From the NCBI RefSeq assembly GCF_022846255.1, contig NZ_AP025682.1: a stretch of 64,000 nucleotides of DNA. One strand, 5' to 3'. The stretch comes from Escherichia coli. Its GTDB lineage: Bacteria; Pseudomonadota; Gammaproteobacteria; Enterobacterales; Enterobacteriaceae. The position numbers were made by a program, and so were the translations under genes. Of this stretch, positions 1 through 19,299 are shown one piece after another. The notes beneath the pieces are model-generated. The model saw nothing but the letters and a program-made list of their open reading frames with translations, was not told where the DNA came from and did no database searches. Each line of letters opens with the position of its first letter. Within the stretch, counting starts at the first letter, position 1.

Positions 1-893
1 GCAAACAACAGGGGTGGTATAAACAATAAGAGAAAAAGTTCAGGATTGAATTCCACATGCAGACCAAATATAGGCTGGGCCAGTACTGCACCAGCGGCAA
101 TCTGGATTAAAGGAAGTGGTATCTGGACAGGAGACAGACGTGTAAGCACGCTGGTTAATGATACTACCAACGTAAGAATTAAAATTGTTAAAAGTATTTC
201 CATATAATAAACAGGCTTCCTCATTCATAAATAATGGATATTATTAATTTAATTTCATAAAAAGCGCTCTGGTTAGCACTTAACGTTAATCATTAATCAC
301 TGCGTTCACTCACATGATCAGAAGGAACCCAGTAAAATAAGTTTTCAAGTTGATAACAAATTCACCATGTGAATATTTACTGCCTTTCCCCGTTGTAACG
401 AATCGTCCGTTACTCTCTGATTTCCTTGCCGAACAAGTTATTTAGTGAATGACGGCTTTCTTTTAATATCAGCATGAATTATACGTTCAGCAAATGTATT
501 AAATCAGCACTAAATAAATTTAATGGATACCACCATTCTGCGTCAACACTTAGTTTTTATCTGTATTGACAATTTAAAATGGCCGCAGCCAAATTAATGA
601 TTTTATTTTTAATAAATCATCAACAGAATAAGAGATCTTATCAGCGGTAACTAAACTCATCAGAGGGTGTTCCTTGTAACGTCATGCATTACATAACTTT
701 AAAATATACAATCAAAAAATGCATTAAAAACCGATTAAAAGCAGCAAAGTATTACCCGGTGCACGAATTTATGATACATCTGCAGCCATTCTGCTATTCG
801 CTGACTACTTTTCAGTAATGACTGCTTTTTCATAAGGTTTCACTCCCGACAACAATGTTGGAGTTTTATTTTCTTAGCATGGAGTAAGTAAAG

Positions 894-1865
894 ATGAGCA
901 AAATAATAGCGATGCTAATTACTGTCAGTACCTTTTTTTTACCGTCAATAATCCAGGCAAAACCTATTTCAATAAAAGTTGCCTATGAAAATAACCCTGG
1001 AGAACCCCTGGATGTAGTCATGCGTTACTGGGCAGACCTATTAAATAAAAAAAGTAATGGCGAAATAACACTTGCGCTCTATCCCAGCTCCCAATTGGGA
1101 TCAAAACAGGATGTCACCGAGCAAGCCATGATGGGCATGAATGTCATAACCTTGAGTGATGTGGCCTTTCTTGCCGATTATGAACCCGATTTGGGGATTT
1201 TGTTTGGACCGTATCTGACTGACGATCCGCAAAAACTGTTCAAAATATATGAAAGCGACTGGTTTAAACAAAAAAATGAAAGTCTGAAGAAAAAGGGAAT
1301 TCATGTGGTAATGAATAATTATCTCTATGGCACTCGACAGATTATTTCGAAAAAACCCATTCGCACCGTTGACGATCTCGCAGGTTTAAAAATTCGCGTT
1401 CCTAATAACGTCATGCAAATAAAAGCCATTCAGGCGATGGGGGCAACACCAACTCCCATGCCATTAGGCGAAGTTTATCCCGCATTAACCCAGGGCGTTA
1501 TTGACGGCGTAGAAAACCCAATTTCAGTGCTGCAAGGGCAAAAACTGTATGAGCAGGCAAGATATCTGACAATGGTTAACTACCTGACAAATACCTCAGT
1601 GTGGATAGGTGGTGAAGCCTTCTTTAGCACCCTTTCACCAGAACAACTGGAGATGATCCACCAGACCGGCTATGAAGCGGGTGTCTATAGCCAGAAACTC
1701 ACTCTTGAGCGTGATGCCGAAATGTTGAAAACCATGCAGGCAGCCGGCGTCGAAGTGATCTATCCCGATACTGGACCATTCCAGAAGAAAGCACGCGAAG
1801 TTTACTCTCAATTCCCGGAATGGACACCAGGTCTGTACGAAACCATTCAACAGCAACTGCAATAA
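894..1865 (+). CDS. TRAP transporter periplasmic substrate-binding protein (DctP family)
   Basis: 323 aa ORF with N-terminal signal-peptide-like segment; GGAG RBS upstream; followed by small and large TRAP permease genes in canonical P-Q-M order. Confidence 0.75.
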   Translation: MSKIIAMLITVSTFFLPSIIQAKPISIKVAYENNPGEPLDVVMRYWADLLNKKSNGEITLALYPSSQLGSKQDVTEQAMMGMNVITLSDVAFLADYEPDLGILFGPYLTDDPQKLFKIYESDWFKQKNESLKKKGIHVVMNNYLYGTRQIISKKPIRTVDDLAGLKIRVPNNVMQIKAIQAMGATPTPMPLGEVYPALTQGVIDGVENPISVLQGQKLYEQARYLTMVNYLTNTSVWIGGEAFFSTLSPEQLEMIHQTGYEAGVYSQKLTLERDAEMLKTMQAAGVEVIYPDTGPFQKKAREVYSQFPEWTPGLYETIQQQLQ

Positions 1866-1928
1866 GCATTAATGCTCAGCGTCCTGCCTCATCTCTCTTA
1901 GGCAGGACACGCACTAACAGGAGGTTTC

Positions 1929-2402
1929 ATGCGTCTTTTTGGCAAAGTGGCAGAATTTAGTGCTGCCTTTGCGCTATTCGTTCTGGTTGTGGTGACAATT
2001 GGAGCGGTATTTATGCGTTATTTCATCGGCCAACCGCTTCAATGGACAGAAGAAATGTCGGGAATGCTGATGATTTGGGTGGTGATGTTAGGTGGAGTGG
2101 TGGCGGAACGTGACAGGGCGCACCTGACCATTCCCTTCCTGATGGAGATGCTTCCAGGCAAACTCAGGCGTGTTATTGCAGTACTGGTCGCCCTTCTCTC
2201 CATCGCACTGCTGCTTTATATGGCCTGGCTGGGCTACCGACTAGCCGAAATGGCGCAGTTTAAAGTGACACAAATTCTGAAGGTTTCCTGGTTCTGGATC
2301 GATCTGGCGGTCCCTGTCGGCGCACTGGCAACGGCTATTTATACCCTCTACTGGTTAATAAACGATACAAAACAATCCGATAGCGGAGACAAAATGCAAT
2401 GA
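1929..2402 (+). CDS. TRAP transporter small permease (DctQ family)
   Basis: 157 aa hydrophobic protein with about 4 TM segments; AGGAGG RBS; stop overlaps start of downstream large permease. Confidence 0.7.
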   Translation: MRLFGKVAEFSAAFALFVLVVVTIGAVFMRYFIGQPLQWTEEMSGMLMIWVVMLGGVVAERDRAHLTIPFLMEMLPGKLRRVIAVLVALLSIALLLYMAWLGYRLAEMAQFKVTQILKVSWFWIDLAVPVGALATAIYTLYWLINDTKQSDSGDKMQ

Positions 2403-3670
2403 GTTGGTTATTGATTATTCCGCTAATGATCGTCTGTTTGTTTCTCAACATTCGGGTCTATCTGGCGATGTTTATTGGCATCATCGCTTACTTTTTATTC
2501 TTCTCCAGCGTACCGATTGAAATTGCCGTGCAAAGACTAATCGCGCCAACGCAAAGCCCATCATTGCTGGCCATTCCGTTTTTTATCTTGCTAGGCACAC
2601 TAATGAGCTACACCGGCATTGCCGAACGCATCCTGCACATTGCCAACGTTCTGGTGGGGAAAATGCGCGGCGGACTGGGCGTGGCAAACATTCTCGTCAG
2701 CACCATGATGGGCGGCGTCAGCGCCTCTAACCTTGCTGACGCGGCGATGCTGTCGCGCATGATGGTGCCGGAGATGGAGCGTAAAGGCTACAATCGCGCG
2801 TTTGCCGCCGCCATTACCGCTGGTGGCTCGTTAGTCACCCCGATCATACCGCCTGGAATAGCCCTGATTATTTACGGTCTGGTTGCCGACGTCTCTATCG
2901 GAAAAATGTTTATCGCCGGACTGGTACCTGGTTTGCTATGCGCAGTCGTACTGATGTTTACCGTCTACCTTGTCGCCCGCAAAACTAACGCTAAACCCTC
3001 GCGTGAAAGCTGGCCTACGGGCAAAGAGGTGGTGTTCTCGCTGGGACAGGCCTGGCCTGCGCTGTTCCTCATTTTTGCTGTGGTGGGTGGTATTCGCGCT
3101 AACATTTTCACCCCAACAGAAGCAGGTGCAGTAGCGGTGCTAATCGTGCTGGCGATTGGCTTTTTTATCTATCGTGAAATGCGGATTTCTCATGTCGTCA
3201 AAGCATTGGGCGAAACGGCACGCGCAACCGCATCGGTGATGCTGGTAATCATGGCCAGCGCCGCATTGGGATGGATTTTCTCAATGGAACATGCTGGTGT
3301 CGCAGTGGCGAATTTTGTGACTTCGCTGACCGAAAACAAATACATGTTCCTGTTGATTATCAACATATTGCTGCTGACGCTGGGGATGTTTCTGGAAGGA
3401 AACGCCATTTTGCTGATCCTGGTACCACTATTAAAACCGGTGGTCGAACACTTTGGCATCGATCCGGTGCATTTTGGCATCATCATGATCTTCAACCTGT
3501 CGATTGGCGCATTCACGCCACCGGTAGGTACCGTGATGCTGCTGGTATGTAATATCACGCAAGTTTCGGTGGGAAATTTCTTTAAACAATCCCTGCCCCT
3601 ACTGGCGGCTCTACTGTTAATGCTAATGCTGGTGACATATATCCCGGCGATTTCACTGTTCCTGGTTTAA
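2399..3670 (+). CDS. TRAP transporter large permease (DctM family)
   Basis: 423 aa polytopic membrane protein; ATGA start/stop overlap with DctQ-like gene indicates translational coupling. Confidence 0.8.
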   Translation: MSWLLIIPLMIVCLFLNIRVYLAMFIGIIAYFLFFSSVPIEIAVQRLIAPTQSPSLLAIPFFILLGTLMSYTGIAERILHIANVLVGKMRGGLGVANILVSTMMGGVSASNLADAAMLSRMMVPEMERKGYNRAFAAAITAGGSLVTPIIPPGIALIIYGLVADVSIGKMFIAGLVPGLLCAVVLMFTVYLVARKTNAKPSRESWPTGKEVVFSLGQAWPALFLIFAVVGGIRANIFTPTEAGAVAVLIVLAIGFFIYREMRISHVVKALGETARATASVMLVIMASAALGWIFSMEHAGVAVANFVTSLTENKYMFLLIINILLLTLGMFLEGNAILLILVPLLKPVVEHFGIDPVHFGIIMIFNLSIGAFTPPVGTVMLLVCNITQVSVGNFFKQSLPLLAALLLMLMLVTYIPAISLFLV

Positions 3671-3680
3671 TAATAAAAAC

Positions 3681-3703
3681 GCCGGATGAAATACTCATCC
3701 GGC
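3681..3703. terminator. Stem-loop between convergent dctM-like and tsr genes (GCCGGATGA / TCATCCGGC, 9-bp stem)
   Basis: Perfect 9-bp inverted repeat with 5-nt loop sitting between two convergent stop codons; flanks only moderately A/T rich. Confidence 0.45.
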
Positions 3704-3712
3704 ATCATTACG

Positions 3713-5377
3713 TTAAAACGTTTCCCAGTTCTCCTCGCTATCTGCCACGGCCATTTTGCGCGGCGTAGCTGGCGTCACGGTTTTTACCACAGCCGATGCT
3801 TCACGCTGCTGTTGCTGCTGTTGCTGAATCCGGAACACTGCCACTGCTTCGGTCAGGCGACTGGCCTGCTCTTCCAGCGCGGCGGCGGCGGCGGCAGATT
3901 CTTCCACCAGCGCGGCGTTCTGTTGAGTTACCCGGTCCATCTCAGCAACCGCTAAGCCAACCTGATCGATACCACGGCTCTGCTCATCAGAAGCAGAAGC
4001 AATTTCGCCCATAATGTCCGTCACGCGGGTCACGGCACTGACAATCTCCGCCATTGTTTCCCCTGCGCTTTCGACCAGCGTAGAGCCAACATCTACTTTC
4101 CCCACCGAGTCTTCAATCAGGCTTTTAATTTCACGAGCCGCCTGAGCGCTGCGCTGGGCCAGATTACGCACTTCACCCGCGACCACCGCAAAACCGCGCC
4201 CTTGCTCACCCGCGCGCGCTGCTTCAACCGCCGCGTTCAAAGCCAGAATATTGGTCTGGAAGGCAATGCCGTCAATTACGCTGATAATATCGGCGATTTT
4301 CTGCGAACTGGTGGAGATATCGCGCATAGTCTGCACCACGTTATCTACCACTTTGCCGCCGCGTTGCGCCGTTTCAGAAGCACTTAACGCCAGGTGGCTG
4401 GCCTGGCGCGCATTTTCGGCGTTCTGCTTCACCGTTGCGGTCAGTTGCTCCATGCTGGCTGCCGTCTCTTCCAGCGAAGCGGCCTGTTGCTCGGTGCGCG
4501 AAGAGAGATCGTTATTGCCGGTAGCGATTTCGCTGGCACCGCTATAGATGGCATTGGCCCCGTTGCGCACATCACCGACGGTACGCATCAGCTCTCCCTG
4601 CATATGGCGCAAACTCTCAGCCAGTTGCCCCATCTCATTAGAGCCATCCACCTCAATCGGTTTCACCAGATCGCCGCCTGCAATATGACGAATGCTGTCA
4701 ATCAGGCGATTCATTGGCGCTACCAACGAGGCTTTAATACCGAACCAGACGGCGAAGATGACCGCCAGTACGACGATCATCACGCCCACCAGAATCCACA
4801 TCGCCTGGCTGTAGGAGGCATTGTTATCGCTGACGGCGATATCATAGAGCCGATCGTTTTGCTCCATGTAAGCCACATACTGCTTCTCGAAACCGTCCTG
4901 ATATCCCTGGGTCGGCTGATCAAAGAACTCGTTGATTTTGCCTGCACCTAACAGTTGGATCAGCTCCGCCAGCGCATTGTGATAAATATCGTAATTACGT
5001 TTGATCTCTGCCGCTGCGGCGGTGCTCTGACGCGGGTCACGCGGCAACGCTTCGTAATCCGCCCAGTTTTTTTCCGCCTGTTTCAGCGAAATACTGGCAC
5101 TCTGCATCAGCTCAGCAACGGTTGAACCGCTACCAATATTATTCTGATCCATCATGTAGCGGATACCCGCGCGGTTGAGGGTGTTACGCGTCTGCAACAA
5201 CGCGACCCAGCTGCCATTCAGCGTGGATTGCTGCTGGCGAATGGTTTGTAAAACAGTGAAATTTTCTTTGTCATTCTTTAAGGCATTAAAGAACAGACCG
5301 CCTGATGTCAGTTGTAAAAGGCCAAAAACGGCCAAAACCAGCAGTAAGCTGGTCACGATCTTGATACGTTTTAACAT
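3713..5377 (-). CDS. tsr: Methyl-accepting chemotaxis protein I (serine chemoreceptor)
   Basis: 554 aa; matches recalled Tsr sequence essentially throughout, including 2 TM segments, HAMP, methylation helices and C-terminal NWETF pentapeptide. Confidence 0.95.
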
Positions 5378-5407
5378 GGTTTCTCTTTCCTGTGGACCGA
5401 TGCAAGA

Positions 5408-5434
5408 TTTTCGGCCTGGAAAGGAAAAACTTTA
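5408..5434 (-). promoter_or_regulatory. Candidate sigma-28 (FliA) promoter for tsr
   Basis: Minus-strand reads TAAAGTTT-N11-GCCGAAAA, close to the FliA consensus TAAAGTTT-N11-GCCGATAA, about 30 bp upstream of the tsr ATG; tsr is a class III flagellar-regulon gene. Confidence 0.55.
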
Positions 5435-5495
5435 TGAAAAGGTGTAACCCGCCATCCATGGAAAAACCAGGCGCTGGTTATCAGATATTAAAAAG

Positions 5496-5942
5496 TTATT
5501 CATTATCGCCCGGAATGTCTTCTTGTCGGGAATTACCCAGAGCAATAAATTCCTCTAACAGATGGGTTAACTGTTGCATTTTCTCGGCAGTAAACTGAGC
5601 TTCAATCTGCCGATAGGCTTCTTCAATCTGTGTCTGAGCGCGGTTATACAGGGCCTGCCCCTCTTTGGTCAGCGAGATATAGAGCTTCCGCTGATCATTG
5701 ATCGGCTTTAATCGCAACACTAAACCGTCGCGTTCCATCCTCGTGAGGATCCCGGTCAGGCTTGGGCGCAAAATGCAGGCGCGATACGCCAGATCGTGAA
5801 AATCCATTGATGGGCTTTCCGCCAGAATACGCACGATGCGCCACTGTTGCTCAGTCAAATTATGCCGTTTAACGATTGGGCGAAAATAACTCATCGCCGC
5901 TTCTCGCGCCTGGAGCAACGCAATGGTTAGTGAGTCGTGCAT
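5496..5942 (-). CDS. hpaR: MarR-family repressor of the hpa meta-cleavage operon
   Basis: About 148 aa from internal Met MHDSLTIALLQ of the ORF; MarR-like winged helix; divergent from hpaG as in the E. coli W/B/C hpa cluster. Confidence 0.8.
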   Translation of the reverse strand: MHDSLTIALLQAREAAMSYFRPIVKRHNLTEQQWRIVRILAESPSMDFHDLAYRACILRPSLTGILTRMERDGLVLRLKPINDQRKLYISLTKEGQALYNRAQTQIEEAYRQIEAQFTAEKMQQLTHLLEEFIALGNSRQEDIPGDNE

Positions 5943-6091
5943 TATCTTTCCCCTGAAAAATTCAAAATCATTAATATAGAAACAGTTAATCGTCACGTTA
6001 CCGGGACTGAGCTATCCCCGCAATTCCTCATTTTATCAAAATTGAGCATACTTTATTAACTTACTGATATTTAGTATTTTATTACCTGCAA

Positions 6092-6126
6092 ATGTAAATA
6101 GTTTGTTAATTAGATCACATTTACAT
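6092..6126. promoter_or_regulatory. Inverted repeat ATGTAAAT...ATTTACAT in hpaR-hpaG divergent promoter region (candidate HpaR operator)
   Basis: 8-bp arms in inverted orientation separated by about 19 bp inside the AT-rich intergenic region between divergent hpaR and hpaG. Confidence 0.3.
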
Positions 6127-6213
6127 CACTTACTTTTGCCAAACTACGCAATCGGGAATAAAAGTAATCATTAACATATTAATGATTAAAATGATCGAAT
6201 CCGAGGAGTGGTA

Positions 6214-7503
6214 ATGAAAGGCACTATCTTCGCCGTAGCGTTGAACCATCGCAGCCAGCTTGATGCATGGCAGGAAGCGTTCCAGCAATCCCCCTACAAA
6301 GCCCCGCCTAAAACTGCGGTCTGGTTTATTAAACCGCGCAATACGGTGATTGGTTGCGGTGAACCGATTCCCTTTCCACAGGGTGAAAAGGTACTGAGCG
6401 GTGCGACAGTTGCGCTGATTGTGGGAAAAACGGCGACGAAAGTACGTGAAGAAGATGCGGCAGAGTACATCGCCGGATATGCGCTGGCTAACGACGTCAG
6501 CCTGCCGGAAGAGAGCTTTTACCGCCCGGCAATCAAAGCAAAATGTCGTGATGGATTCTGCCCCATTGGCGAAACCGTGGCTCTCAGCAATGTCGATAAT
6601 CTGACCATCTATACCGAGATCAACGGGCGTCCTGCCGATCACTGGAACACCGCCGATTTACAACGTAATGCCGCGCAGTTGCTGAGCGCCCTGAGCGAAT
6701 TTGCCACGCTGAATCCAGGCGATGCCATTCTGCTCGGCACGCCACAGGCGCGCGTGGAAATACAGCCAGGCGATCGCGTTCGTGTTCTCGCAGAAGGTTT
6801 CCCGCCACTGGAAAATCCGGTAGTGGACGAACGTGAAGTGACCACGCGCAAGAGCTTCCCAACGCAGCCACACCCGCACGGCACGCTGTTTGCCCTCGGC
6901 CTGAACTACGCCGACCACGCCAGCGAACTGGAATTTAAGCCACCGGAAGAACCGCTGGTGTTCCTGAAAGCGCCGAATACCCTCACGGGCGATAACCAGA
7001 CCTCCGTGCGCCCGAACAATATTGAATACATGCACTACGAAGCGGAGCTGGTGGTAGTTATTGGCAAGCAGGCGCGTAACGTCAGCGAAGCCGATGCCAT
7101 GGATTATGTCGCGGGCTACACCGTGTGTAACGACTACGCCATTCGCGACTATCTGGAAAACTACTACCGCCCTAACCTGCGGGTAAAAAGCCGCGACGGA
7201 CTGACGCCGATGCTTTTAACCATCGTGCCGAAAGAGGCGATCCCGGACCCGCATAATCTGACCCTTCGCACCTTCGTCAACGGCGAGTTACGCCAGCAAG
7301 GCACCACCGCCGATCTGAACTTCAGCGTGCCCTTCCTGATCGCCTACTTAAGCGAATTTATGACCCTGAATCCGGGCGACATGATCGCCACCGGCACACC
7401 AAAAGGCTTATCTGACGTGGTGCCTGGCGATGAAGTAGTGGTGGAAGTCGAAGGCGTGGGCCGCCTGGTGAACCGAATTGTGAGTGAGGAAACAGCGAAA
7501 TGA
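6214..7503 (+). CDS. hpaG: Bifunctional 5-oxopent-3-ene-1,2,5-tricarboxylate decarboxylase / 2-hydroxyhepta-2,4-diene-1,7-dioate isomerase (tandem FAH domains)
   Basis: About 429 aa from ATG at 6214 preceded by GAGGAG RBS; two tandem FAH-like halves; first gene of hpaGEDFHI order. Confidence 0.85.
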   Translation: MKGTIFAVALNHRSQLDAWQEAFQQSPYKAPPKTAVWFIKPRNTVIGCGEPIPFPQGEKVLSGATVALIVGKTATKVREEDAAEYIAGYALANDVSLPEESFYRPAIKAKCRDGFCPIGETVALSNVDNLTIYTEINGRPADHWNTADLQRNAAQLLSALSEFATLNPGDAILLGTPQARVEIQPGDRVRVLAEGFPPLENPVVDEREVTTRKSFPTQPHPHGTLFALGLNYADHASELEFKPPEEPLVFLKAPNTLTGDNQTSVRPNNIEYMHYEAELVVVIGKQARNVSEADAMDYVAGYTVCNDYAIRDYLENYYRPNLRVKSRDGLTPMLLTIVPKEAIPDPHNLTLRTFVNGELRQQGTTADLNFSVPFLIAYLSEFMTLNPGDMIATGTPKGLSDVVPGDEVVVEVEGVGRLVNRIVSEETAK

Positions 7504-8966
7504 AAAAAGTAAATCATTGGATCAACGGCAAAAATGTTGCAGGTAACGACTACTTCCAGACTACCAATCCGGCAACGGGTGAAGTGCTGGCGGATGTGGC
7601 CTCTGGCGGTGAAGCGGAGATCAATCAGGCGGTAGCGGCAGCGAAAGAGGCGTTCCCGAAATGGGCCAATCTGCCGATGAAAGAGCGTGCGCGCCTGATG
7701 CGCCGTCTGGGCGATTTGATCGACCAGAACGTGCCTGAGATCGCCGCGATGGAAACCGCGGACACGGGCCTGCCGATCCATCAGACCAAAAATGTGTTGA
7801 TCCCACGCGCTTCTCACAACTTTGAATTTTTCGCGGAAGTCTGCCAGCAGATGAACGGCAAGACCTATCCGGTTGACGACAAGATGCTCAACTACACGCT
7901 GGTGCAACCGGTAGGCGTTTGTGCGCTGGTGTCACCGTGGAACGTGCCGTTTATGACCGCCACATGGAAGGTCGCGCCGTGTCTTGCGCTGGGCAATACC
8001 GCGGTGCTGAAGATGTCGGAACTCTCCCCGCTGACCGCTGACCGCCTGGGTGAGCTGGCGCTGGAAGCCGGTATTCCGGCAGGCGTGCTGAACGTGGTAC
8101 AGGGCTACGGCGCAACCGCAGGGGATGCGCTGGTTCGTCATCATGACGTACGTGCCGTGTCGTTCACCGGCGGTACGGCCACCGGGCGCAACATCATGAA
8201 AAAAGCCGGGCTGAAAAAATACTCCATGGAACTGGGCGGTAAATCGCCGGTGCTGATTTTTGAAGATGCTGATATTGAACGCGCGCTGGACGCCGCCCTG
8301 TTCACCATCTTCTCGATCAACGGCGAGCGCTGCACCGCCGGTTCGCGCATCTTTATTCAGCAAAGCATCTACCCGGAATTCGTTAAACGCTTTGCCGAAC
8401 GCGCCAACCGTCTGCGCGTGGGCGATCCGAATGATCCGAATACCCAGGTTGGGGCGCTTATCAGCCAGCAACACTGGGAAAAAGTCTCCGGCTATATCCG
8501 TCTCGGCATTGAAGAAGGCGCAACCCTGCTGGCGGGCGGTCCGGATAAACCGTCCGACCTGCCTGCGCACCTGAAAGGCGGCAACTTCCTGCGCCCAACG
8601 GTGCTGGCTGACGTTGATAACCGTATGCGCGTCGCCCAGGAAGAGATTTTCGGGCCGGTCGCCTGCCTGCTGCCGTTTAAAGATGAAGCCGAAGGCTTAC
8701 GCCTGGCAAACGACGTGGAGTACGGCCTCGCGTCGTACATCTGGACGCAGGATGTCAGCAAAGTGTTACGCCTGGCGCGTGGCATTGAAGCAGGCATGGT
8801 GTTCGTCAACACCCAGAACGTGCGCGACCTGCGCCAGCCGTTTGGCGGCGTAAAAGCCTCCGGCACCGGGCGTGAAGGCGGTGAGTACAGCTTCGAAGTG
8901 TTCGCGGAAATGAAGAACGTCTGCATTTCCATGGGCGACCATCCAATTCCGAAATGGGGAGTCTGA
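7500..8966 (+). CDS. hpaE: 5-carboxymethyl-2-hydroxymuconate semialdehyde dehydrogenase (aldehyde dehydrogenase family)
   Basis: 488 aa; aldehyde dehydrogenase hallmarks (ELGGKSP, cysteine active-site region); ATGA overlap with hpaG. Confidence 0.9.
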   Translation: MKKVNHWINGKNVAGNDYFQTTNPATGEVLADVASGGEAEINQAVAAAKEAFPKWANLPMKERARLMRRLGDLIDQNVPEIAAMETADTGLPIHQTKNVLIPRASHNFEFFAEVCQQMNGKTYPVDDKMLNYTLVQPVGVCALVSPWNVPFMTATWKVAPCLALGNTAVLKMSELSPLTADRLGELALEAGIPAGVLNVVQGYGATAGDALVRHHDVRAVSFTGGTATGRNIMKKAGLKKYSMELGGKSPVLIFEDADIERALDAALFTIFSINGERCTAGSRIFIQQSIYPEFVKRFAERANRLRVGDPNDPNTQVGALISQQHWEKVSGYIRLGIEEGATLLAGGPDKPSDLPAHLKGGNFLRPTVLADVDNRMRVAQEEIFGPVACLLPFKDEAEGLRLANDVEYGLASYIWTQDVSKVLRLARGIEAGMVFVNTQNVRDLRQPFGGVKASGTGREGGEYSFEVFAEMKNVCISMGDHPIPKWGV

Positions 8967-8967
8967 T

Positions 8968-9819
8968 ATGGGTAAGTTAGCGTTAGCCGCCAAGATCACG
9001 CACGTACCGTCGATGTATCTCTCTGAACTGCCAGGGAAAAACCACGGTTGCCGCCAGGGCGCGATCGACGGGCATAAAGAGATCAGCAAGCGTTGCCGGG
9101 AAATGGGCGTCGATACCATTATCGTTTTCGATACTCACTGGCTGGTCAACAGTGCTTATCACATCAACTGTGCAGACCATTTTGAAGGCGTCTACACCAG
9201 CAACGAGCTGCCGCATTTTATTCGTGACATGACCTACAACTACGAGGGCAACCCGGAGTTGGGGCAGCTAATTGCCGATGAAGCGATAAAACTCGGCGTG
9301 CGGGCGAAAGCGCACAACATTCCCAGCCTGAAACTGGAATACGGCACGCTGGTGCCAATGCGCTACATGAATGAAGACAAGCACTTCAAAGTGGTTTCCA
9401 TTTCGGCTTTCTGCACGGTTCACGATTTTGCCGACAGCCGCAAGCTGGGCGAAGCGATTCTGAAAGCGATCGAACAGTACGACGGCACCGTGGCGGTCCT
9501 TGCCAGCGGTTCGTTATCGCACCGCTTTATTGACGATCAGCGTGCGGAAGAAGGGATGAACAGCTACACCCGCGAGTTCGACCGCCAGATGGACGAGCGC
9601 GTGGTGAAGCTGTGGCGCGAAGGCCAGTTCAAAGAGTTCTGCAATATGCTGCCGGAGTACGCCGACTACTGCTACGGCGAAGGCAATATGCACGACACGG
9701 TGATGCTGCTGGGGATGCTCGGCTGGGATAAATACGACGGCAAGGTGGAGTTTATCACCGAGCTGTTCCCAAGCTCCGGTACTGGTCAGGTTAACGCTGT
9801 TTTCCCGCTTCCCGCGTAA
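8968..9819 (+). CDS. hpaD: 3,4-dihydroxyphenylacetate 2,3-dioxygenase (extradiol dioxygenase)
   Basis: 283 aa; position and size match hpaD in the hpa meta-cleavage operon. Confidence 0.85.
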   Translation: MGKLALAAKITHVPSMYLSELPGKNHGCRQGAIDGHKEISKRCREMGVDTIIVFDTHWLVNSAYHINCADHFEGVYTSNELPHFIRDMTYNYEGNPELGQLIADEAIKLGVRAKAHNIPSLKLEYGTLVPMRYMNEDKHFKVVSISAFCTVHDFADSRKLGEAILKAIEQYDGTVAVLASGSLSHRFIDDQRAEEGMNSYTREFDRQMDERVVKLWREGQFKEFCNMLPEYADYCYGEGNMHDTVMLLGMLGWDKYDGKVEFITELFPSSGTGQVNAVFPLPA

Positions 9820-9828
9820 GGAACCACC

Positions 9829-10209
9829 ATGCCGCACTTTATCGTGGAATGTACTGAAAATATTCGTCAAGAAGCCCGCTTACCTGAGCTGTTTGCCAGT
9901 GTTAACACCGCACTGGCAGCGACGGGGATTTTTCCGCTTGGGGGAATACGTAGCCGGGCACACTGGATCGATACCTGGCAAATGGCTGATGGCAAGCACG
10001 ATTACGCCTTTGTGCATATGACGCTAAAAATCGGCAGCGGGCGCAGTCTGGAAAGCCGTCAGGAAGTGGGCGAAATGCTGTTTGATCTGATTAAAACGCA
10101 CTTCGCCTCACTGATGGAGAGCCGTTACCTGGCGCTTTCATTTGAGATTGCAGAGCTGCACCCGACGTTGAATTTCAAACAGAACAACGTACACGCGTTG
10201 TTTAAATAA
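9829..10209 (+). CDS. hpaF: 5-carboxymethyl-2-hydroxymuconate isomerase
   Basis: 126 aa starting [12 protein letters not shown]; size and operon position consistent with HpaF. Confidence 0.85.
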
Positions 10210-10227
10210 ATTTGCACCAGCTTCCAG

Positions 10228-10257
10228 GCCGGATGATAAGGCGCAGCCGCATCCGGC
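10228..10257. repeat. REP-like palindrome (GCCGGATG...CATCCGGC) between hpaF and hpaH
   Basis: Inverted repeat of GCCGGATG arms resembling enterobacterial REP elements. Confidence 0.4.
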
Positions 10258-10276
10258 AATGCCACAGGATATCGCT

Positions 10277-11080
10277 ATGTTCGATAAACATACCCACACC
10301 CTGATCGCCCAGCGTCTGGATCAGGCAGAAAAACAGCGCGAACAGATCCGCGCGATCTCCCTGGATTACCCGGAGATCACCATCGAAGACGCTTACGCGG
10401 TGCAGCGCGAATGGGTTCGCCTGAAAATCGCCGAAGGCCGTACGCTGAAAGGCCACAAAATCGGACTGACCTCGAAAGCGATGCAGGCCAGCTCACAAAT
10501 CAGCGAACCAGATTACGGTGCACTGCTGGACGACATGTTCTTCCACGACGGCAGCGATATCCCGACCGATCGCTTTATCGTGCCGCGCATTGAAGTGGAG
10601 CTGGCTTTCGTGCTGGCAAAACCGCTGCGTGGGCCAAACTGCACGCTGTTCGACGTCTACAACGCCACGGACTATGTGATCCCGGCGCTGGAGCTGATCG
10701 ACGCTCGCTGCCACAACATCGATCCGGAAACCCAGCGCCCGCGTAAAGTGTTCGACACCATTTCTGATAACGCCGCCAATGCCGGGGTGATCCTCGGTGG
10801 TCGTCCCATTAAGCCCGATGAGTTGGATCTACGTTGGATCTCCGCCCTGATGTATCGCAATGGCGTGATTGAAGAAACCGGCGTCGCCGCTGGCGTGCTG
10901 AATCACCCGGCAAACGGCGTGGCCTGGCTGGCGAACAAACTCGCACCGTATGACGTACAACTGGAAGCCGGGCAAATCATTCTCGGTGGTTCGTTCACCC
11001 GCCCGGTTCCGGCGCGTAAGGGCGACACCTTCCACGTCGATTACGGCAACATGGGCTCCATTAGCTGCCGCTTTGTTTAA
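10277..11080 (+). CDS. hpaH: 2-oxo-hept-4-ene-1,7-dioate hydratase
   Basis: About 267 aa from MFDKHTHT; hydratase of the hpa pathway by position and size. Confidence 0.85.
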
Positions 11081-11090
11081 GGAGAGAACG

Positions 11091-11879
11091 ATGGAAAACA
11101 GTTTTAAAGCGGCGCTGAAAGCAGGCCGCCCGCAGATCGGATTATGGCTGGGGCTAAGTAGCAGCTACAGCGCAGAGTTACTGGCCGGAGCAGGATTCGA
11201 CTGGTTATTGATCGACGGTGAGCACGCGCCGAACAACGTGCAAACCGTGCTCACCCAGCTACAGGCGATTGCGCCCTACCCCAGCCAGCCGGTAGTGCGC
11301 CCATCCTGGAACGATCCGGTGCAAATCAAACAACTGCTGGATGTCGGTACACAAACCTTACTGGTGCCGATGGTACAAAACGCCGACGAAGCCCGTGAAG
11401 CGGTACGCGCCACCCGTTATCCCCCCGCCGGTATTCGTGGTGTGGGCAGTGCGCTGGCCCGCGCCTCGCGCTGGAACCGTATTCCGGATTACCTGCAAAA
11501 AGCCAACGATCAAATGTGCGTGCTGGTGCAGATCGAAACTCGTGAGGCAATGAAGAACCTACCGCAGATTCTGGACGTGGAAGGGGTAGACGGCGTGTTT
11601 ATCGGCCCGGCGGATCTGAGCGCCGATATGGGTTATGCCGGTAATCCGCAGCACCCGGAAGTGCAGGCCGCCATTGAACAGGCGATCGTGCAGATCCGTG
11701 AAGCGGGCAAAGCTCCGGGGATCCTGATCGCCAATGAGCAACTGGCAAAACGCTACCTGGAACTGGGCGCGCTATTTGTCGCCGTCGGCGTTGACACCAC
11801 CCTGCTCGCCCGCGCCGCCGAAGCGCTGGCAGCACGGTTTGGTGCTCAGGCCACCGCCGTGAAGCCCGGCGTGTATTAA
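11091..11879 (+). CDS. hpaI: 4-hydroxy-2-oxo-heptane-1,7-dioate aldolase (HpcH/HpaI aldolase family)
   Basis: 262 aa from [19 protein letters not shown] with GGAGAG RBS; class II aldolase family pattern. Confidence 0.85.
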
Positions 11880-11952
11880 TGCCGGATGCGCTTATCCGGT
11901 TTACAGCAGTACCAAATTGTAGCCGGATAAGGCGTTTGTGCTGCATCCGCCA
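11880..11952. repeat. REP element cluster (BIME-like) downstream of hpaI
   Basis: GCCGGATGCGCTTATCCGG and TAGCCGGATAAGGCG...GCATCCGCC palindromic units typical of REP sequences. Confidence 0.5.
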
Positions 11953-11996
11953 TAAACCTTGTCGTACCCTACAAAAATCCCATTAGAGGAAGAAAA

Positions 11997-13373
11997 ATGA
12001 GCGACACCTCACCTGCCATACCGGAGAGTATCGATCCGGCGAATCAGCATAAAGCGCTGACTGCCGGACAACAGGCGGTTATTAAGAAGTTGTTTCGCCG
12101 CCTGATCGTCTTTCTGTTCGTGCTGTTTATCTTCTCGTTCCTTGATCGCATCAACATTGGTTTTGCTGGACTAACGATGGGACGCGACCTCGGTCTGAGC
12201 GCCACCATGTTTGGCCTCGCTACCACCCTGTTCTACGCCGCTTATGTCATCTTCGGCATTCCCAGCAACATTATGCTGAGTATTGTCGGTGCGCGGCGCT
12301 GGATCGCCACCATCATGGTGCTCTGGGGCATCGCCTCTACGGCCACCATGTTTGCCACTGGCCCCACCAGCTTATACGTACTGCGTATACTGGTTGGCAT
12401 TACCGAAGCCGGCTTTCTGCCTGGTATTCTGCTGTATTTAACCTTCTGGTTTCCGGCCTATTTCCGCGCCCGTGCCAACGCCTTGTTTATGGTAGCAATG
12501 CCGGTAACGACAGCGCTGGGATCTATCGTTTCCGGCTACATTTTGTCGCTGGATGGCGTAATGGCATTAAAAGGCTGGCAGTGGCTGTTTTTGCTGGAAG
12601 GCTTCCCGTCGGTATTACTCGGCGTCATGGTGTGGTTCTGGCTTGATGACTCACCGGACAAAGCTAAGTGGCTGACGAAAGAAGACAAAAAATGCCTGCA
12701 AGAGATGATGGATAACGATCGTCTGACGCTGGTTCAGCCAGAGGGAGCCATCAGTCACCACGCCATGCAACAACGCAGCATGTGGCGGGAGATCTTCACT
12801 CCGGTGGTGATGATGTATACCCTGGCGTATTTCTGCCTGACCAACACACTTAGTGCAATCAGCATCTGGACACCGCAGATCCTGCAAAGCTTTAATCAGG
12901 GTAGCAGTAATATCACCATCGGCCTGCTGGCCGCCGTACCGCAGATTTGTACCATTCTCGGGATGATCTACTGGAGCCGTCACTCAGATCGCCGCCAGGA
13001 ACGAAGGCATCACACCGCCCTTCCTTATTTGTTCGCTGCCGCTGGTTGGTTACTGGCTTCGGCAACTGATCACAACATGATCCAGATGCTGGGGATCATT
13101 ATGGCTTCGACCGGATCATTCAGCGCAATGGCGATTTTCTGGACAACACCGGATCAGTCCATCAGCCTGCGGGCACGAGCGATCGGTATTGCGGTGATCA
13201 ACGCCACTGGCAACATTGGTTCAGCGTTAAGTCCGTTTATGATCGGCTGGTTGAAAGATCTGACCGGCAGCTTTAACAGTGGATTGTGGTTTGTTGCCGC
13301 GCTGCTGGTGATTGGTGCGGGGATTATCTGGGCAATTCCAATGCAGTCCTCCCGTCCGCGAGCGACCCCGTAA
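11997..13373 (+). CDS. hpaX: 4-hydroxyphenylacetate permease (MFS transporter)
   Basis: 458 aa 12-TM MFS-like protein located between hpaI and hpaA as in the described hpa cluster. Confidence 0.85.
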   Translation: MSDTSPAIPESIDPANQHKALTAGQQAVIKKLFRRLIVFLFVLFIFSFLDRINIGFAGLTMGRDLGLSATMFGLATTLFYAAYVIFGIPSNIMLSIVGARRWIATIMVLWGIASTATMFATGPTSLYVLRILVGITEAGFLPGILLYLTFWFPAYFRARANALFMVAMPVTTALGSIVSGYILSLDGVMALKGWQWLFLLEGFPSVLLGVMVWFWLDDSPDKAKWLTKEDKKCLQEMMDNDRLTLVQPEGAISHHAMQQRSMWREIFTPVVMMYTLAYFCLTNTLSAISIWTPQILQSFNQGSSNITIGLLAAVPQICTILGMIYWSRHSDRRQERRHHTALPYLFAAAGWLLASATDHNMIQMLGIIMASTGSFSAMAIFWTTPDQSISLRARAIGIAVINATGNIGSALSPFMIGWLKDLTGSFNSGLWFVAALLVIGAGIIWAIPMQSSRPRATP

Positions 13374-13382
13374 GGAACGACG

Positions 13383-14273
13383 ATGTGCGATAGTCAGATT
13401 GCCAATATTGATATCAGCAAAGAGTACGATGAAAGCCTGGGCACGGACGATGTGCATTATCAGTCCTTCGCCCGCATGGCGGCCTTTTTTGGCCGCCATA
13501 TGCTGCCACATCGCCACGAACAGTACTTTCAGATGCATTTCCTCAATAGCGGACAGATTGAGCTACAGCTTGACGATCATCGCTACTCGGTGGAAGCGCC
13601 CCTGTTTGTCCTGACGCCGCCGTCAGTACCTCATGCGTTTATTACGGAGTCTGACGCCGACGGTCATGTGTTGACGGTACGGGAAGATCTGATCTGGCCC
13701 CTGCTGGAAGTTCTTTATCCGGGCACTCGGGAAACCTTCGGCCTGCCGGGGATTTGCCTGTCACTGGCAGATAAACCCGACGAACTGGCAGCGCTGGAAC
13801 ACTATTGGCAACTGATAGAGCGGGAATCGGTAGAACAACTGCCTGGACGGGAACACACCCTGACGCTACTAGCACAGGCAGTATTCACCCTACTGCTGCG
13901 TAATGCAAAACTCGACGACCATGCCGCCAGCGGGATGCGCGGAGAATTAAAACTGTTCCAGCGTTTTAATATGCTGATTGAAAGCCATTTTCATCAGCAC
14001 TGGACGGTACCGGATTACGCTAACGAACTGCATATCACCGAATCACGACTCACCGACATCTGCCGCCGCTTTGCCAACCGTCCGCCAAAACGGTTGATTT
14101 TCGACAGGCAGCTACGAGAAGCCAAGCGGCTGCTGCTGTTTTCTGATAACGCCGTGAACAATATTGCCTGGCAACTCGGTTTTAAGGATCCGGCTTATTT
14201 TGCGCGCTTTTTTAATCGCTTAGTCGGTTGCTCGCCCAGTGCTTATCGCGCCAAAAAAGTACCTGTGACGTGA
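13383..14273 (+). CDS. hpaA: AraC/XylS-family activator of hpaBC
   Basis: 296 aa; C-terminal AraC-type HTH region; immediately upstream of hpaBC. Confidence 0.85.
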   Translation: MCDSQIANIDISKEYDESLGTDDVHYQSFARMAAFFGRHMLPHRHEQYFQMHFLNSGQIELQLDDHRYSVEAPLFVLTPPSVPHAFITESDADGHVLTVREDLIWPLLEVLYPGTRETFGLPGICLSLADKPDELAALEHYWQLIERESVEQLPGREHTLTLLAQAVFTLLLRNAKLDDHAASGMRGELKLFQRFNMLIESHFHQHWTVPDYANELHITESRLTDICRRFANRPPKRLIFDRQLREAKRLLLFSDNAVNNIAWQLGFKDPAYFARFFNRLVGCSPSAYRAKKVPVT

Positions 14274-14523
14274 AAATCCCTTAGCCTTAACGGGAAACCA
14301 GGCACCACCTGCTATTCCCCTTTCTCCGCCTGGAGCAAGGGGATTTAGTAACGTTAAAAATCGCGAAAAGCGACCTCGATCACAAAACCGTACCCGACCT
14401 GAAAAGTACCAGCCATTGTCCCAAAAGTGTCTTCCCGTAATCGCCCCTGCAAGCTTCAATTGAATAACAAAAACAACACACAAAATTAACAATCATATTC
14501 CGATTAATACTGTAGAGGTCGAT

Positions 14524-16086
14524 ATGAAACCAGAAGATTTCCGCGCCAGTACCCAACGTCCGTTCACCGGGGAAGAGTATCTGAAAAGCCTGCAGGATGG
14601 TCGCGAGATCTATATCTATGGCGAGCGAGTGAAAGACGTCACCACTCATCCGGCATTTCGTAATGCGGCAGCGTCTGTTGCCCAACTGTACGACGCGCTG
14701 CACAAACCGGAGATGCAGGACTCTCTGTGTTGGAACACCGACACCGGCAGCGGCGGCTATACCCATAAATTCTTCCGCGTGGCGAAAAGTGCCGACGACC
14801 TGCGCCAGCAACGCGACGCCATCGCTGAATGGTCACGCCTGAGCTATGGCTGGATGGGCCGTACCCCAGACTACAAAGCCGCTTTCGGTTGCGCACTGGG
14901 CGCAAATCCGGGCTTTTACGGTCAGTTCGAGCAGAACGCCCGTAACTGGTACACCCGTATTCAGGAAACTGGCCTCTACTTTAACCACGCGATTGTTAAC
15001 CCACCGATTGATCGTCATTTGCCGACCGATAAAGTGAAAGACGTTTACATCAAGCTGGAAAAAGAGACTGACGCCGGGATTATCGTCAGCGGTGCGAAAG
15101 TGGTTGCCACCAACTCGGCGCTGACTCACTACAACATGATTGGCTTCGGCTCGGCACAAGTGATGGGCGAAAACCCGGACTTCGCACTGATGTTCGTTGC
15201 GCCAATGGATGCCGATGGCGTGAAATTAATCTCCCGCGCCTCTTATGAGATGGTCGCGGGTGCTACCGGCTCGCCATACGACTACCCGCTCTCCAGCCGC
15301 TTCGATGAGAACGATGCGATCCTGGTGATGGATAACGTACTGATCCCGTGGGAAAACGTGTTGATCTACCGCGATTTCGATCGCTGCCGTCGCTGGACGA
15401 TGGAAGGCGGTTTCGCCCGTATGTATCCGCTGCAAGCCTGTGTGCGCCTGGCAGTGAAATTAGACTTCATTACGGCACTGCTGAAAAAATCACTCGAATG
15501 TACCGGCACCCTGGAGTTCCGTGGCGTGCAGGCCGATCTCGGTGAAGTGGTGGCGTGGCGCAACACCTTCTGGGCATTGAGTGACTCGATGTGTTCAGAA
15601 GCAACGCCGTGGGTCAACGGGGCTTATTTACCGGATCATGCCGCACTGCAAACCTATCGCGTACTGGCACCAATGGCCTACGCGAAGATCAAAAACATTA
15701 TCGAACGCAACGTTACCAGTGGCCTGATCTATCTCCCTTCCAGTGCCCGTGACCTGAACAATCCGCAGATCGACCAGTATCTGGCGAAGTATGTGCGCGG
15801 TTCGAACGGTATGGATCACGTCCAGCGCATCAAGATCCTCAAACTGATGTGGGATGCTATTGGCAGCGAATTTGGTGGTCGTCACGAGCTGTATGAAATC
15901 AACTACTCCGGTAGCCAGGATGAGATTCGCCTGCAGTGTCTGCGTCAGGCACAAAGCTCCGGCAATATGGACAAGATGATGGCGATGGTTGATCGCTGCC
16001 TGTCGGAATACGACCAGAACGGCTGGACTGTGCCGCACCTGCACAACAACGACGATATCAACATGCTGGATAAGCTGCTGAAATAA
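14524..16086 (+). CDS. hpaB: 4-hydroxyphenylacetate 3-monooxygenase, oxygenase component
   Basis: 520 aa; matches the two-component flavin-dependent HpaB family in size and operon context. Confidence 0.9.
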   Translation: MKPEDFRASTQRPFTGEEYLKSLQDGREIYIYGERVKDVTTHPAFRNAAASVAQLYDALHKPEMQDSLCWNTDTGSGGYTHKFFRVAKSADDLRQQRDAIAEWSRLSYGWMGRTPDYKAAFGCALGANPGFYGQFEQNARNWYTRIQETGLYFNHAIVNPPIDRHLPTDKVKDVYIKLEKETDAGIIVSGAKVVATNSALTHYNMIGFGSAQVMGENPDFALMFVAPMDADGVKLISRASYEMVAGATGSPYDYPLSSRFDENDAILVMDNVLIPWENVLIYRDFDRCRRWTMEGGFARMYPLQACVRLAVKLDFITALLKKSLECTGTLEFRGVQADLGEVVAWRNTFWALSDSMCSEATPWVNGAYLPDHAALQTYRVLAPMAYAKIKNIIERNVTSGLIYLPSSARDLNNPQIDQYLAKYVRGSNGMDHVQRIKILKLMWDAIGSEFGGRHELYEINYSGSQDEIRLQCLRQAQSSGNMDKMMAMVDRCLSEYDQNGWTVPHLHNNDDINMLDKLLK

Positions 16087-16103
16087 CGCAGCAGGAGGTT
16101 AAG

Positions 16104-16616
16104 ATGCAATTAGATGAACAACGCCTGCGCTTTCGTGACGCAATGGCCAGCCTGTCGGCAGCGGTAAATATTATCACCACCGAGGGCGACGCCGGGCAAT
16201 GCGGGATTACGGCAACGGCTGTCTGCTCGGTCACGGATACACCACCGTCGCTGATGGTGTGCATTAACGCCAACAGTGCGATGAACCCGGTTTTTCAGGG
16301 CAACGGTAAGTTGTGCGTCAACGTCCTCAACCATGAGCAGGAACTGATGGCACGCCACTTCGCGGGCATGACAGGCATGGCGATGGAAGAGCGTTTTAGC
16401 CTCTCATGCTGGCAAAAAGGTCCGCTGGCGCAGCCGGTGCTGAAAGGTTCGCTGGCCAGTCTTGAAGGTGAGATCCGCGATGTGCAGGCGATTGGCACAC
16501 ATCTGGTGTATCTGGTGGAGATTAAAAACATCATCCTCAGTGCAGAAGGTCACGGACTTATCTACTTTAAACGCCGTTTCCATCCGGTGATGCTGGAAAT
16601 GGAAGCTGCGATTTAA
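16104..16616 (+). CDS. hpaC: 4-hydroxyphenylacetate 3-monooxygenase, flavin reductase component
   Basis: 170 aa flavin reductase-like protein directly downstream of hpaB with AGGAGG RBS. Confidence 0.9.
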   Translation: MQLDEQRLRFRDAMASLSAAVNIITTEGDAGQCGITATAVCSVTDTPPSLMVCINANSAMNPVFQGNGKLCVNVLNHEQELMARHFAGMTGMAMEERFSLSCWQKGPLAQPVLKGSLASLEGEIRDVQAIGTHLVYLVEIKNIILSAEGHGLIYFKRRFHPVMLEMEAAI

Positions 16617-16622
16617 GCTCCA

Positions 16623-16658
16623 GCCCCTTCACGTATTCGTCGAAGGGGCATTTTTATT
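16623..16658 (+). terminator. Rho-independent terminator after hpaC
   Basis: GCCCCTTC...GAAGGGGC stem followed by ATTTTTATT run. Confidence 0.6.
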
Positions 16659-16701
16659 GTGATCTCAATCACATATCCACCCGATGAATAATTCTTGCCC
16701 A

Positions 16702-16750
16702 ACCGCTCACCGCCATTCCTGACCGCTTACATCCCTAAAATAACCACTCA
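16702..16750 (+). promoter_or_regulatory. Three direct repeats ACC(G/A)CT(C/T)A spaced about 21 bp upstream of btsT (LytTR-type BtsR/YehT binding motif)
   Basis: ACCGCTCA (16702), ACCGCTTA (16722), ACCACTCA (16743); matches the described YehT/BtsR recognition motif of direct repeats with 13-bp spacer. Confidence 0.55.
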
Positions 16751-16885
16751 GTTATTTACCTTACTTTACGCGCGCGTAACTCTGGCAACATCACTGCAGG
16801 ATAGCGGTCAATTTACCTCCTCAAACGCAACGCAAACCTAGAACGGCTTCGGCCAACTATTAATCAATACATGCCAGGTTTTACT

Positions 16886-19036: not shown

Positions 19037-19044
19037 CCGTGTTT

Positions 19045-19072
19045 AGCCCCGCTTCGGCGGGGCTTTGTTCTT
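19045..19072 (+). terminator. Hairpin plus T-tract after btsT (terminator/attenuator before yjiX)
   Basis: AGCCCCGC-TTCG-GCGGGGCT stem-loop followed by TTGTTCTTAT. Confidence 0.45.
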
Positions 19073-19085
19073 ATCAGAGTGAACT

Positions 19086-19289
19086 ATGTTTGGTAACTTA
19101 GGACAGGCAAAAAAATATCTCGGCCAGGCGGCGAAGATGTTGATTGGCATTCCAGACTACGACAACTACGTCGAGCATATGAAGACCAACCATCCCGACA
19201 AGCCGTACATGAGCTATGAAGAATTCTTCCGCGAACGCCAGAACGCGCGCTACGGCGGCGATGGTAAAGGCGGTATGCGCTGTTGTTAA
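19086..19289 (+). CDS. yjiX: Small DUF466-family protein accompanying CstA-like transporters
   Basis: 67 aa; conserved partner gene immediately downstream of btsT. Confidence 0.75.
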
Positions 19290-19299
19290 TGGAGAGAGC

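Follow-up and report, generated by a model that had tools for sequence, protein, structure and literature searches.

The window, a 64,000-nt stretch of an Escherichia coli genome (contig NZ_AP025682.1) read on one strand, carries tsr, the gene of the serine chemoreceptor, on its minus strand. The initial annotation, made from the letters alone, had named the gene correctly: tsr is the annotation under every E. coli match to the stretch, and a protein identical to the translated product over its full length (P0001, 100% identity) carries the Pfam domains PF00015, PF00672 and PF02203 (MCP-signal, HAMP and TarH). The Tsr of the window has the MCP signalling domain, the HAMP domain and the four-helix-bundle TarH ligand-binding domain, and its open reading frame ends in ...SEENWETF, that is, in an xWxxF pentapeptide closing a non-conserved linker. 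Across 32 orthologues N550, E552, T553 and F554 are invariant and W551 is kept in at least 90%, while the linker that precedes them is not conserved. The features that concern us here are the following.

3713..5377, minus strand: tsr coding sequence, serine chemoreceptor, 554 aa plus stop codon, with C-terminal NWETF (open reading frame list; annotation of the E. coli matches)
3716..3730, minus strand: NWETF pentapeptide (sequence and open reading frame; role from PMC7390727 and PMC8609364)
3731..3829, minus strand: C-terminal flexible tether of 33 codons, Ile517 up to the last residue ahead of NWETF (PMC10561060; PMC4692393; AF2 model)
3806..3826, minus strand: glutamine tract CAG CAA CAG CAG CAA CAG CAG, 21 nt, 7 Gln (read from the sequence; TRF)
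3818..3826, minus strand: repeat unit 1, CAGCAACAG (MG1655 alignment)
3809..3817, minus strand: repeat unit 2, CAGCAACAG (sequence; TRF)
3806..3808, minus strand: partial third unit, CAG (read directly from the sequence)
3878..3895, minus strand: neighbouring (GCC)5GCG tract encoding six alanines, Ala6 (TRF period 3, 100% matches)

Alternative gene sets lie on either side of tsr (window 2399-3670, plus strand; 5496-5996, minus strand; 6208-7503, plus strand). The gene is followed downstream either by a TRAP transporter permease, as in the window, or by lgoT-lgoR, as in K-12, and upstream there is either hpaR with the 4-hydroxyphenylacetate cluster, as in the window, or other genes; the combinations of flanking genes track neither the tsr tree nor the number of glutamines. 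Directly after the tsr stop codon, at about window 3671-3712, a G+C-rich inverted repeat (GCCGGATGA...TCATCCGGC) is followed by TTTTT. With tsr and the TRAP permease gene converging on it from either side, it looks like a putative intrinsic terminator shared by both. Among complete E. coli genomes, the best full-length match to window 1-20000 has 97.7% identity (O145:H28 and others), and identity of at least 99% anywhere in this segment is reached in only one record. The 208 bp around the glutamine tract are identical in strains such as MCJCHV-1.

A run of about seven glutamines encoded by a CTG/CAG trinucleotide tract had been described at this position. There are indeed exactly seven codons, read on the minus strand from 3826 to 3806, but the tract turned out to be a mixture of CAG and CAA with a 9-bp periodicity. 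TRF reports it as 2.4 copies of a period-9 unit, CAGCAACAG (Gln-Gln-Gln), with 100% matches and a score of 44, compared with only 78% matches at period 3. CAA breaks the run at every third codon and the longest pure stretch is (CAG)2, so that this is not the uninterrupted run of a single trinucleotide that defines a (CAG)n microsatellite; its 2.4 head-to-tail copies are those of an in-frame coding VNTR, which has at least two. In the seven-codon allele the 12-bp sequence CAGCAACAGCAG is present twice, at an offset of 9 bp. A search for (CAR)7 gives a single occurrence in the 64 kb of the window and none in 100 shuffles that preserve dinucleotide composition, and only one other tandem repeat of the window reaches a TRF score of 40 or more. 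That repeat, at window 14981-15010, has a period of 15, 2.0 copies and 87% matches, with the unit TTAACCCACCGATTG.

The chemoreceptor tether, unstructured and about 30-35 residues long, terminates in NWETF and serves to recruit CheR and CheB (PMC7390727, PMC8609364, PMC10561060). In K-12 Tsr it begins at I517 and forms a flexible chain of 30 residues (PMC10561060), and according to Parkinson's group the non-conserved C-terminus of Tsr starts after residue 517 (PMC4692393). Because the tether starts at I517 and the non-conserved part after residue 517, the glutamine run is the first element of the tether. Its earlier assignment to the flexible tether that carries NWETF agrees with this start, but the run had been placed just before the pentapeptide, whereas it opens the tether on its N-terminal side, 25 residues ahead of NWETF. 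In an AF2 model (554 aa, 32 orthologues; mean pLDDT 72.8, pTM 0.40) confident helix stops at residue 512 and pLDDT drops below 50 at residue 521 and stays there up to the C-terminus, with a low-confidence helix over residues 519-529; going by this model, there may be some helical extension of the glutamine run. Immediately before the tether, at window 3830-3832, R516 is replaced by Leu (CGG to CTG) in strains 98198 and CB8671 (L006 and L007). R516 is the tethering point in the published model.

In tsr of K-12 MG1655 (L001) the tract reads CAG CAA CAG CAG, which encodes four glutamines, residues 518-521 in K-12 numbering, in a protein of 551 aa. The shorter K-12 run given in the initial annotation is therefore real (4 against 7 Gln, 551 against 554 aa). 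The two Tsr proteins are 99% identical, and the alignment of the genes places a clean 9-bp gap within the tract, exactly one unit. The unit that is absent in K-12 is either of two identical copies, which the alignment cannot tell apart.

The lengths of the tract in the species were counted with short exact probes in 5,426 complete E. coli genomes, built such that only one allele could supply the 28-base exact word that megablast requires. The 3' end of tsr was found in 5,342 of these genomes with a 208-nt query and in 5,382 with a 45-nt blastn query. The probe for a pure run of seven glutamine codons (Q7; other lengths are abbreviated likewise) matched 3,800 genomes, the Q4 probe 1,208, and a probe for ten or more codons 75; this last probe was built around a naturally occurring CAT mismatch, since a pure 30-nt tract is masked by DUST in megablast. 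A two-probe query for His-containing forms matched 252 genomes, nearly all of them QQQQQHQ and at least one QQHQ. Seven-codon alleles are thereby carried by about 4,050 genomes, or about 76% (3,800 with pure Gln plus about 250 with QQQQQHQ), ten-codon alleles by about 73 (about 1.4%) and 13-codon alleles by at least two. Four-codon alleles are carried by about 1,210 genomes, a share (about 23%) that is inflated by the laboratory K-12 derivatives in which the RefSeq complete-genome set is rich and that is probably too high for natural populations. These classes total 5,335 genomes, and some 7 to 47 genomes holding the region fall outside them. Q7 is the common E. coli allele, and the Q4 of K-12 is a minority form.

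Alleles of at least ten codons were read directly in L004 and L011-L017, where they are Q10 (NRG 857C, HS, KSC64, 94-3024 and 8178), QQQQQQQQHQ (2014C-3338) and Q13 (A13 and Z1323HEC0355, 560 aa). CFSAN061771 carries QQQQQHQ and GF43 carries QQHQ, and two synonymous CAG-to-CAA variants of the seven-codon tract were seen among the loci read. Over the loci L001-L024 the copy number is about 1.3, 2.3, 3.3 or 4.3, corresponding to 4, 7, 10 or 13 codons, and the tract varies by whole units as a VNTR does. The comparison of alleles by glutamine-codon count that had been proposed as a check therefore gives 4, 7, 10 and 13, and not one length everywhere. All alleles have full-length open reading frames, of 551, 554, 557 or 560 aa, and keep NWETF; the differences being multiples of 9 bp, there is none of the on/off or frame switching of contingency loci and phase variation. 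Sequencing or assembly artefacts were ruled out, as the alleles are found in complete genomes, are common to members of a clade and are always in frame.

Steps of a single codon were searched for separately. Alleles of 2, 3, 5, 6 and 8 codons were not found by the probe searches of the 5,426 genomes. Exact probes for Q5 and Q3 (a clean probe pair) had no match in this set, and a query of 39 probes, aimed at alleles that depart from Q4 or Q7 by one or two codons in either direction and validated on simulated alleles, returned no record at or above 99% identity, the band where simulation puts Q8, Q6 and Q2. This query was read through identity bands and top multi-piece matches, after each candidate allele had been simulated; the top-ranked multi-piece matches are synonymous seven-codon variants only, and 2,846 gapped matches are artefacts caused by a GCA/GCT flank polymorphism that extends into the spacer. 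Among the nine-codon forms, four CAG-rich probes were DUST-masked and two forms were without a specific probe, and rare alleles of other lengths are thus possible. The alleles differing by 3-bp units that a (CAG)n microsatellite would have were not seen in the glutamine tract. They are found, by contrast, in the alanine tract of the same gene: the protein database contains E. coli Tsr entries 553, 555 and 556 aa long, all of them Q7, whose length difference is due to the alanine tract (the best 120 matches of the full-length protein search are all E. coli variants), and in complete genomes there are alleles of five alanines (at least 16 genomes), seven (at least one) and eight (at least two). 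A pure (GCC)5 tract located 52 bp from the glutamine tract thus varies by single codons; (GCC)5 slips by one codon, whereas the CAA-interrupted glutamine tract changes only by the 9-bp unit.

The Ala6 tract (window 3878-3895, minus strand) is on the methylation helix, between the methylation sites E493 and E502, and a one-residue indel at such a place in the coiled coil should be of greater consequence than the glutamine variation. Other length variants of E. coli Tsr were also encountered. In strain 3PT from mink (L002, 341-1972) a 33-nt in-frame deletion at about window 3884-3916, flanked by short GCCGCG direct repeats, removes 11 residues including E493 and leaves a Tsr of 543 aa. In P0070 (570 aa) 16 residues within HAMP are duplicated in tandem, and P0104 has an additional His in HAMP (IRHHIAGG).

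The history of the unit number was followed on a neighbour-joining tree built, after removal of the glutamine tract, from 25 tsr coding sequences (those of 24 loci and that of the window); the set was enriched on purpose for rare alleles and informs on recurrence, not on rate. The unit number changes 11 times on this tree, against a minimum of 3 with one origin per length, a count that short gene-conversion tracts could mimic in part, tsr being visibly mosaic and located between variable islands. At the finest scale, only 2 nt of 1,644 separate 98198 and CB8671 (Q7) from GN04979 (Q4). A single tight clade, with TRAP transporter genes downstream, includes Q4, Q7, Q10 and Q13, and its Q4 members carry the flanking SNPs of their own clade and not those of K-12. 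Q10 is found on three haplotypes (HS/KSC64, NRG857C/8178 and 94-3024), and the His-marked unit is present in tracts of 4, 7 and 10 codons. Because there are 11 changes instead of 3, and genes 2 nt apart with 4 and 7 glutamines, the number of units probably changes recurrently, and comparison of these sequences points to slippage of the 9-bp unit as the most likely cause.

Outside the species, Leclercia, Enterobacter, Citrobacter, Kluyvera and a 95%-identical Escherichia lineage have IQQ(D/E/A/S)QQ(K/R)... at the position of the tract. Among the matches listed, a set without E. albertii, E. fergusonii, Shigella and Salmonella, these outgroup Tsr proteins have no pure glutamine run, no 9-bp periodicity and a tether of 33 residues. 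Since the outgroup tethers have 33 aa, the seven-codon allele is the usual length and K-12 the short outlier. Both alleles are also represented among deposited structures. PDB 3ZX6 (chain A, residues 273-341, an Af1503-HAMP/Tsr chimera) carries the seven-Gln allele and was therefore built from a non-K-12 tsr, and as far as the sequence search shows the polymorphism goes without comment in the deposited molecule name; PDB 6S1K has the four-Gln sequence of K-12.

We consider it likely, with a probability of roughly 70%, that the tract is a short in-frame 9-bp VNTR opening the Tsr tether that slips by whole units, with seven glutamines as the common state, a contraction in K-12 and a near-neutral effect. 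We infer the following course of events. During replication the nascent strand would misalign on the 12-bp sequence repeated at a 9-bp offset, the units and the partial third unit supplying the 12-bp homology, and one unit would be lost or gained; the four-Gln allele of K-12 would be such a contraction by one unit. Slippage by single codons would not be favoured, because the CAA interruptions leave only (CAG)2 pure. The four-codon allele would be expected to be comparatively stable, because it keeps only 3 bp of repeated homology, and the longer alleles would be less so. Such predicted differences in stability would be in line with the occurrence of Q4 in large clonal blocks and with how rare Q10 and Q13 are. 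Length polymorphism by slipped-strand mispairing, as the initial annotation had it, is upheld inasmuch as the length does vary in E. coli, although the steps are 9-bp units and not single CAG codons. Changes in copy number, giving 4, 7, 10 or 13 glutamines, would produce tethers of 30, 33, 36 or 39 residues and, because every allele is in frame with NWETF, the outcome would be length variation of a functional protein and not an on/off switch.

The likely consequence of such variation can be approached from Tar, where in tether variants of 22-46 aa the peak of CheR concentration shifts by 0.128 +/- 0.048 nm per residue (PMC10561060). Extrapolating from these data, one unit would correspond to about 0.38 nm of CheR reach and the natural range to about 1.15 nm, roughly one heptad; shifts of this size (about 0.38-1.15 nm) would be measurable in principle, yet small compared with the tether's own spread. 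By this analogy we infer that each unit gained or lost would move the reach of the tethered enzymes CheR and CheB slightly, by about 0.4 nm, a change that is probably close to neutral. An effect of the natural Tsr alleles on adaptation kinetics, as proposed in the initial annotation, is plausible, but probably small.

Other explanations deserve consideration. That the tract is a CAG/CTG trinucleotide microsatellite which gains and loses single glutamine codons by slipped-strand mispairing is hardly tenable: it is built of CAG and CAA codons, TRF also lists period 3 and its length differs among strains, but the 78% matches at period 3 compare poorly with the 100% at period 9, pure runs do not exceed (CAG)2, the only lengths seen are 4, 7, 10 and 13, the probes for Q2, Q3, Q5, Q6 and Q8 were without a match in the 5,426 genomes, and the protein length variants of one or two residues map to the alanine tract and not to this one. 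Alternatively, the length classes could have arisen once or twice long ago, homologous recombination having since shuffled tsr 3' ends between lineages. The mosaic 3'-end haplotypes and the alternative islands flanking tsr (lgoT-lgoR or TRAP; hpaR or other), which do not track the tree, are in line with such shuffling, which nevertheless seems unlikely to us in view of coding sequences 2-3 nt apart that differ in unit number while keeping their own SNPs 10-60 bp from the tract. Moreover, GN04979 and 729yolk, both Q4, share the GCA/ACG/CGC markers with their Q7 sisters instead of having those of K-12, the His-marked unit sits in 4-, 7- and 10-codon contexts, and Q13 has no plausible donor class except a further expansion of Q10.

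The variation could also be adaptive, selection keeping lineage- or niche-specific tether lengths that set the adaptation kinetics of Tsr or its preference among methylation sites. The 9-bp repeat would then be an evolved tuning knob with which lineages repeatedly reset, by way of three glutamines, the reach of CheR and CheB along Tsr and its neighbours. In Tar, CheR reach and adaptation precision respond measurably to tether length (PMC10561060); the 34 aa of Tar fall within the natural Tsr range of 30-39 aa, the common allele has the 33-aa length of other genera, and the changes appear recurrent. A neutral hypermutable repeat would, however, also give recurrence, the predicted effect per unit is small, and no obvious association with host or niche is seen, the Q10 isolates coming from human, mouse, pig, dog, soil and water; we therefore regard adaptive tuning as improbable. 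If it were true, the repeat would alter the order in which methylation sites are served, and hence the speed and precision of adaptation to serine, and K-12, on which nearly all quantitative models of chemotaxis are based, would stand at the short extreme of the natural range.

The tether and pentapeptide of chemoreceptors are textbook knowledge, and in-frame tandem repeats that change by slippage are well known in bacteria. As a real 9-bp coding repeat that probably changes recurrently, the tract of Tsr is not a new kind of system. It is located in the same protein and the same region as the tether and NWETF described for the high-abundance chemoreceptors (Tsr, Tar), starting right after I517. 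However, the literature's Tsr has one tether length, the 30 aa of K-12, whereas the Tsr of the window has 33 aa and the species a series of 30, 33, 36 and 39; the K-12 form makes up about 23% of a K-12-enriched set of genomes, even though the literature treats its length as that of Tsr. In the literature searched, whose coverage is incomplete, we found no description of a glutamine polymorphism in Tsr. A close parallel is the engineered Tar tethers (22, 29, 34 and 46 aa), described with a tethered-particle-motion model of CheR, which likewise change only the number of residues from the helical body to NWETF; from their published slope of 0.128 nm per residue one can predict in numbers what the natural Tsr alleles should do. 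Those are laboratory constructs modified at the distal end of the tether, whereas the natural variation of Tsr is at the proximal end and involves glutamine only.

As in other bacterial coding VNTRs and minisatellite-like repeats, the copies are perfect and head-to-tail, and the polymorphism concerns whole units, keeps the frame and is probably recurrent; unlike them, the repeat is very short (about 1.3 to 4.4 copies of 9 bp) and resides in a cytoplasmic signalling protein and not in a surface protein. With contingency loci and phase-variable SSRs it would share a repeat-mediated, reversible and recurrent intragenic mutation, but there is no frameshift and no on/off state, since lengths change by multiples of 9 bp and Tsr is always full-length.

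The existence of this polymorphism bears on how Tsr is understood. It has been argued that the Tsr tether is shorter than that of Tar as its methylation sites lie closer to the anchor (PMC10561060), an argument that weakens because it uses the K-12 length; in most E. coli the tether has 33 residues, against 34 in Tar. More generally, nearly all quantitative work on chemotactic adaptation has been done with K-12 Tsr, whose 30-residue tether is the shorter and less common allele. The CAA codons among the CAG codons are a clean example of codon interruptions that replace slippage in 3-bp steps by slippage in 9-bp steps, with the pure (GCC)5 tract in the same gene acting as a control for single-codon slippage, and the natural series of 30, 33, 36 and 39 residues is a ready set of otherwise near-identical receptors for models of tethered enzymes.
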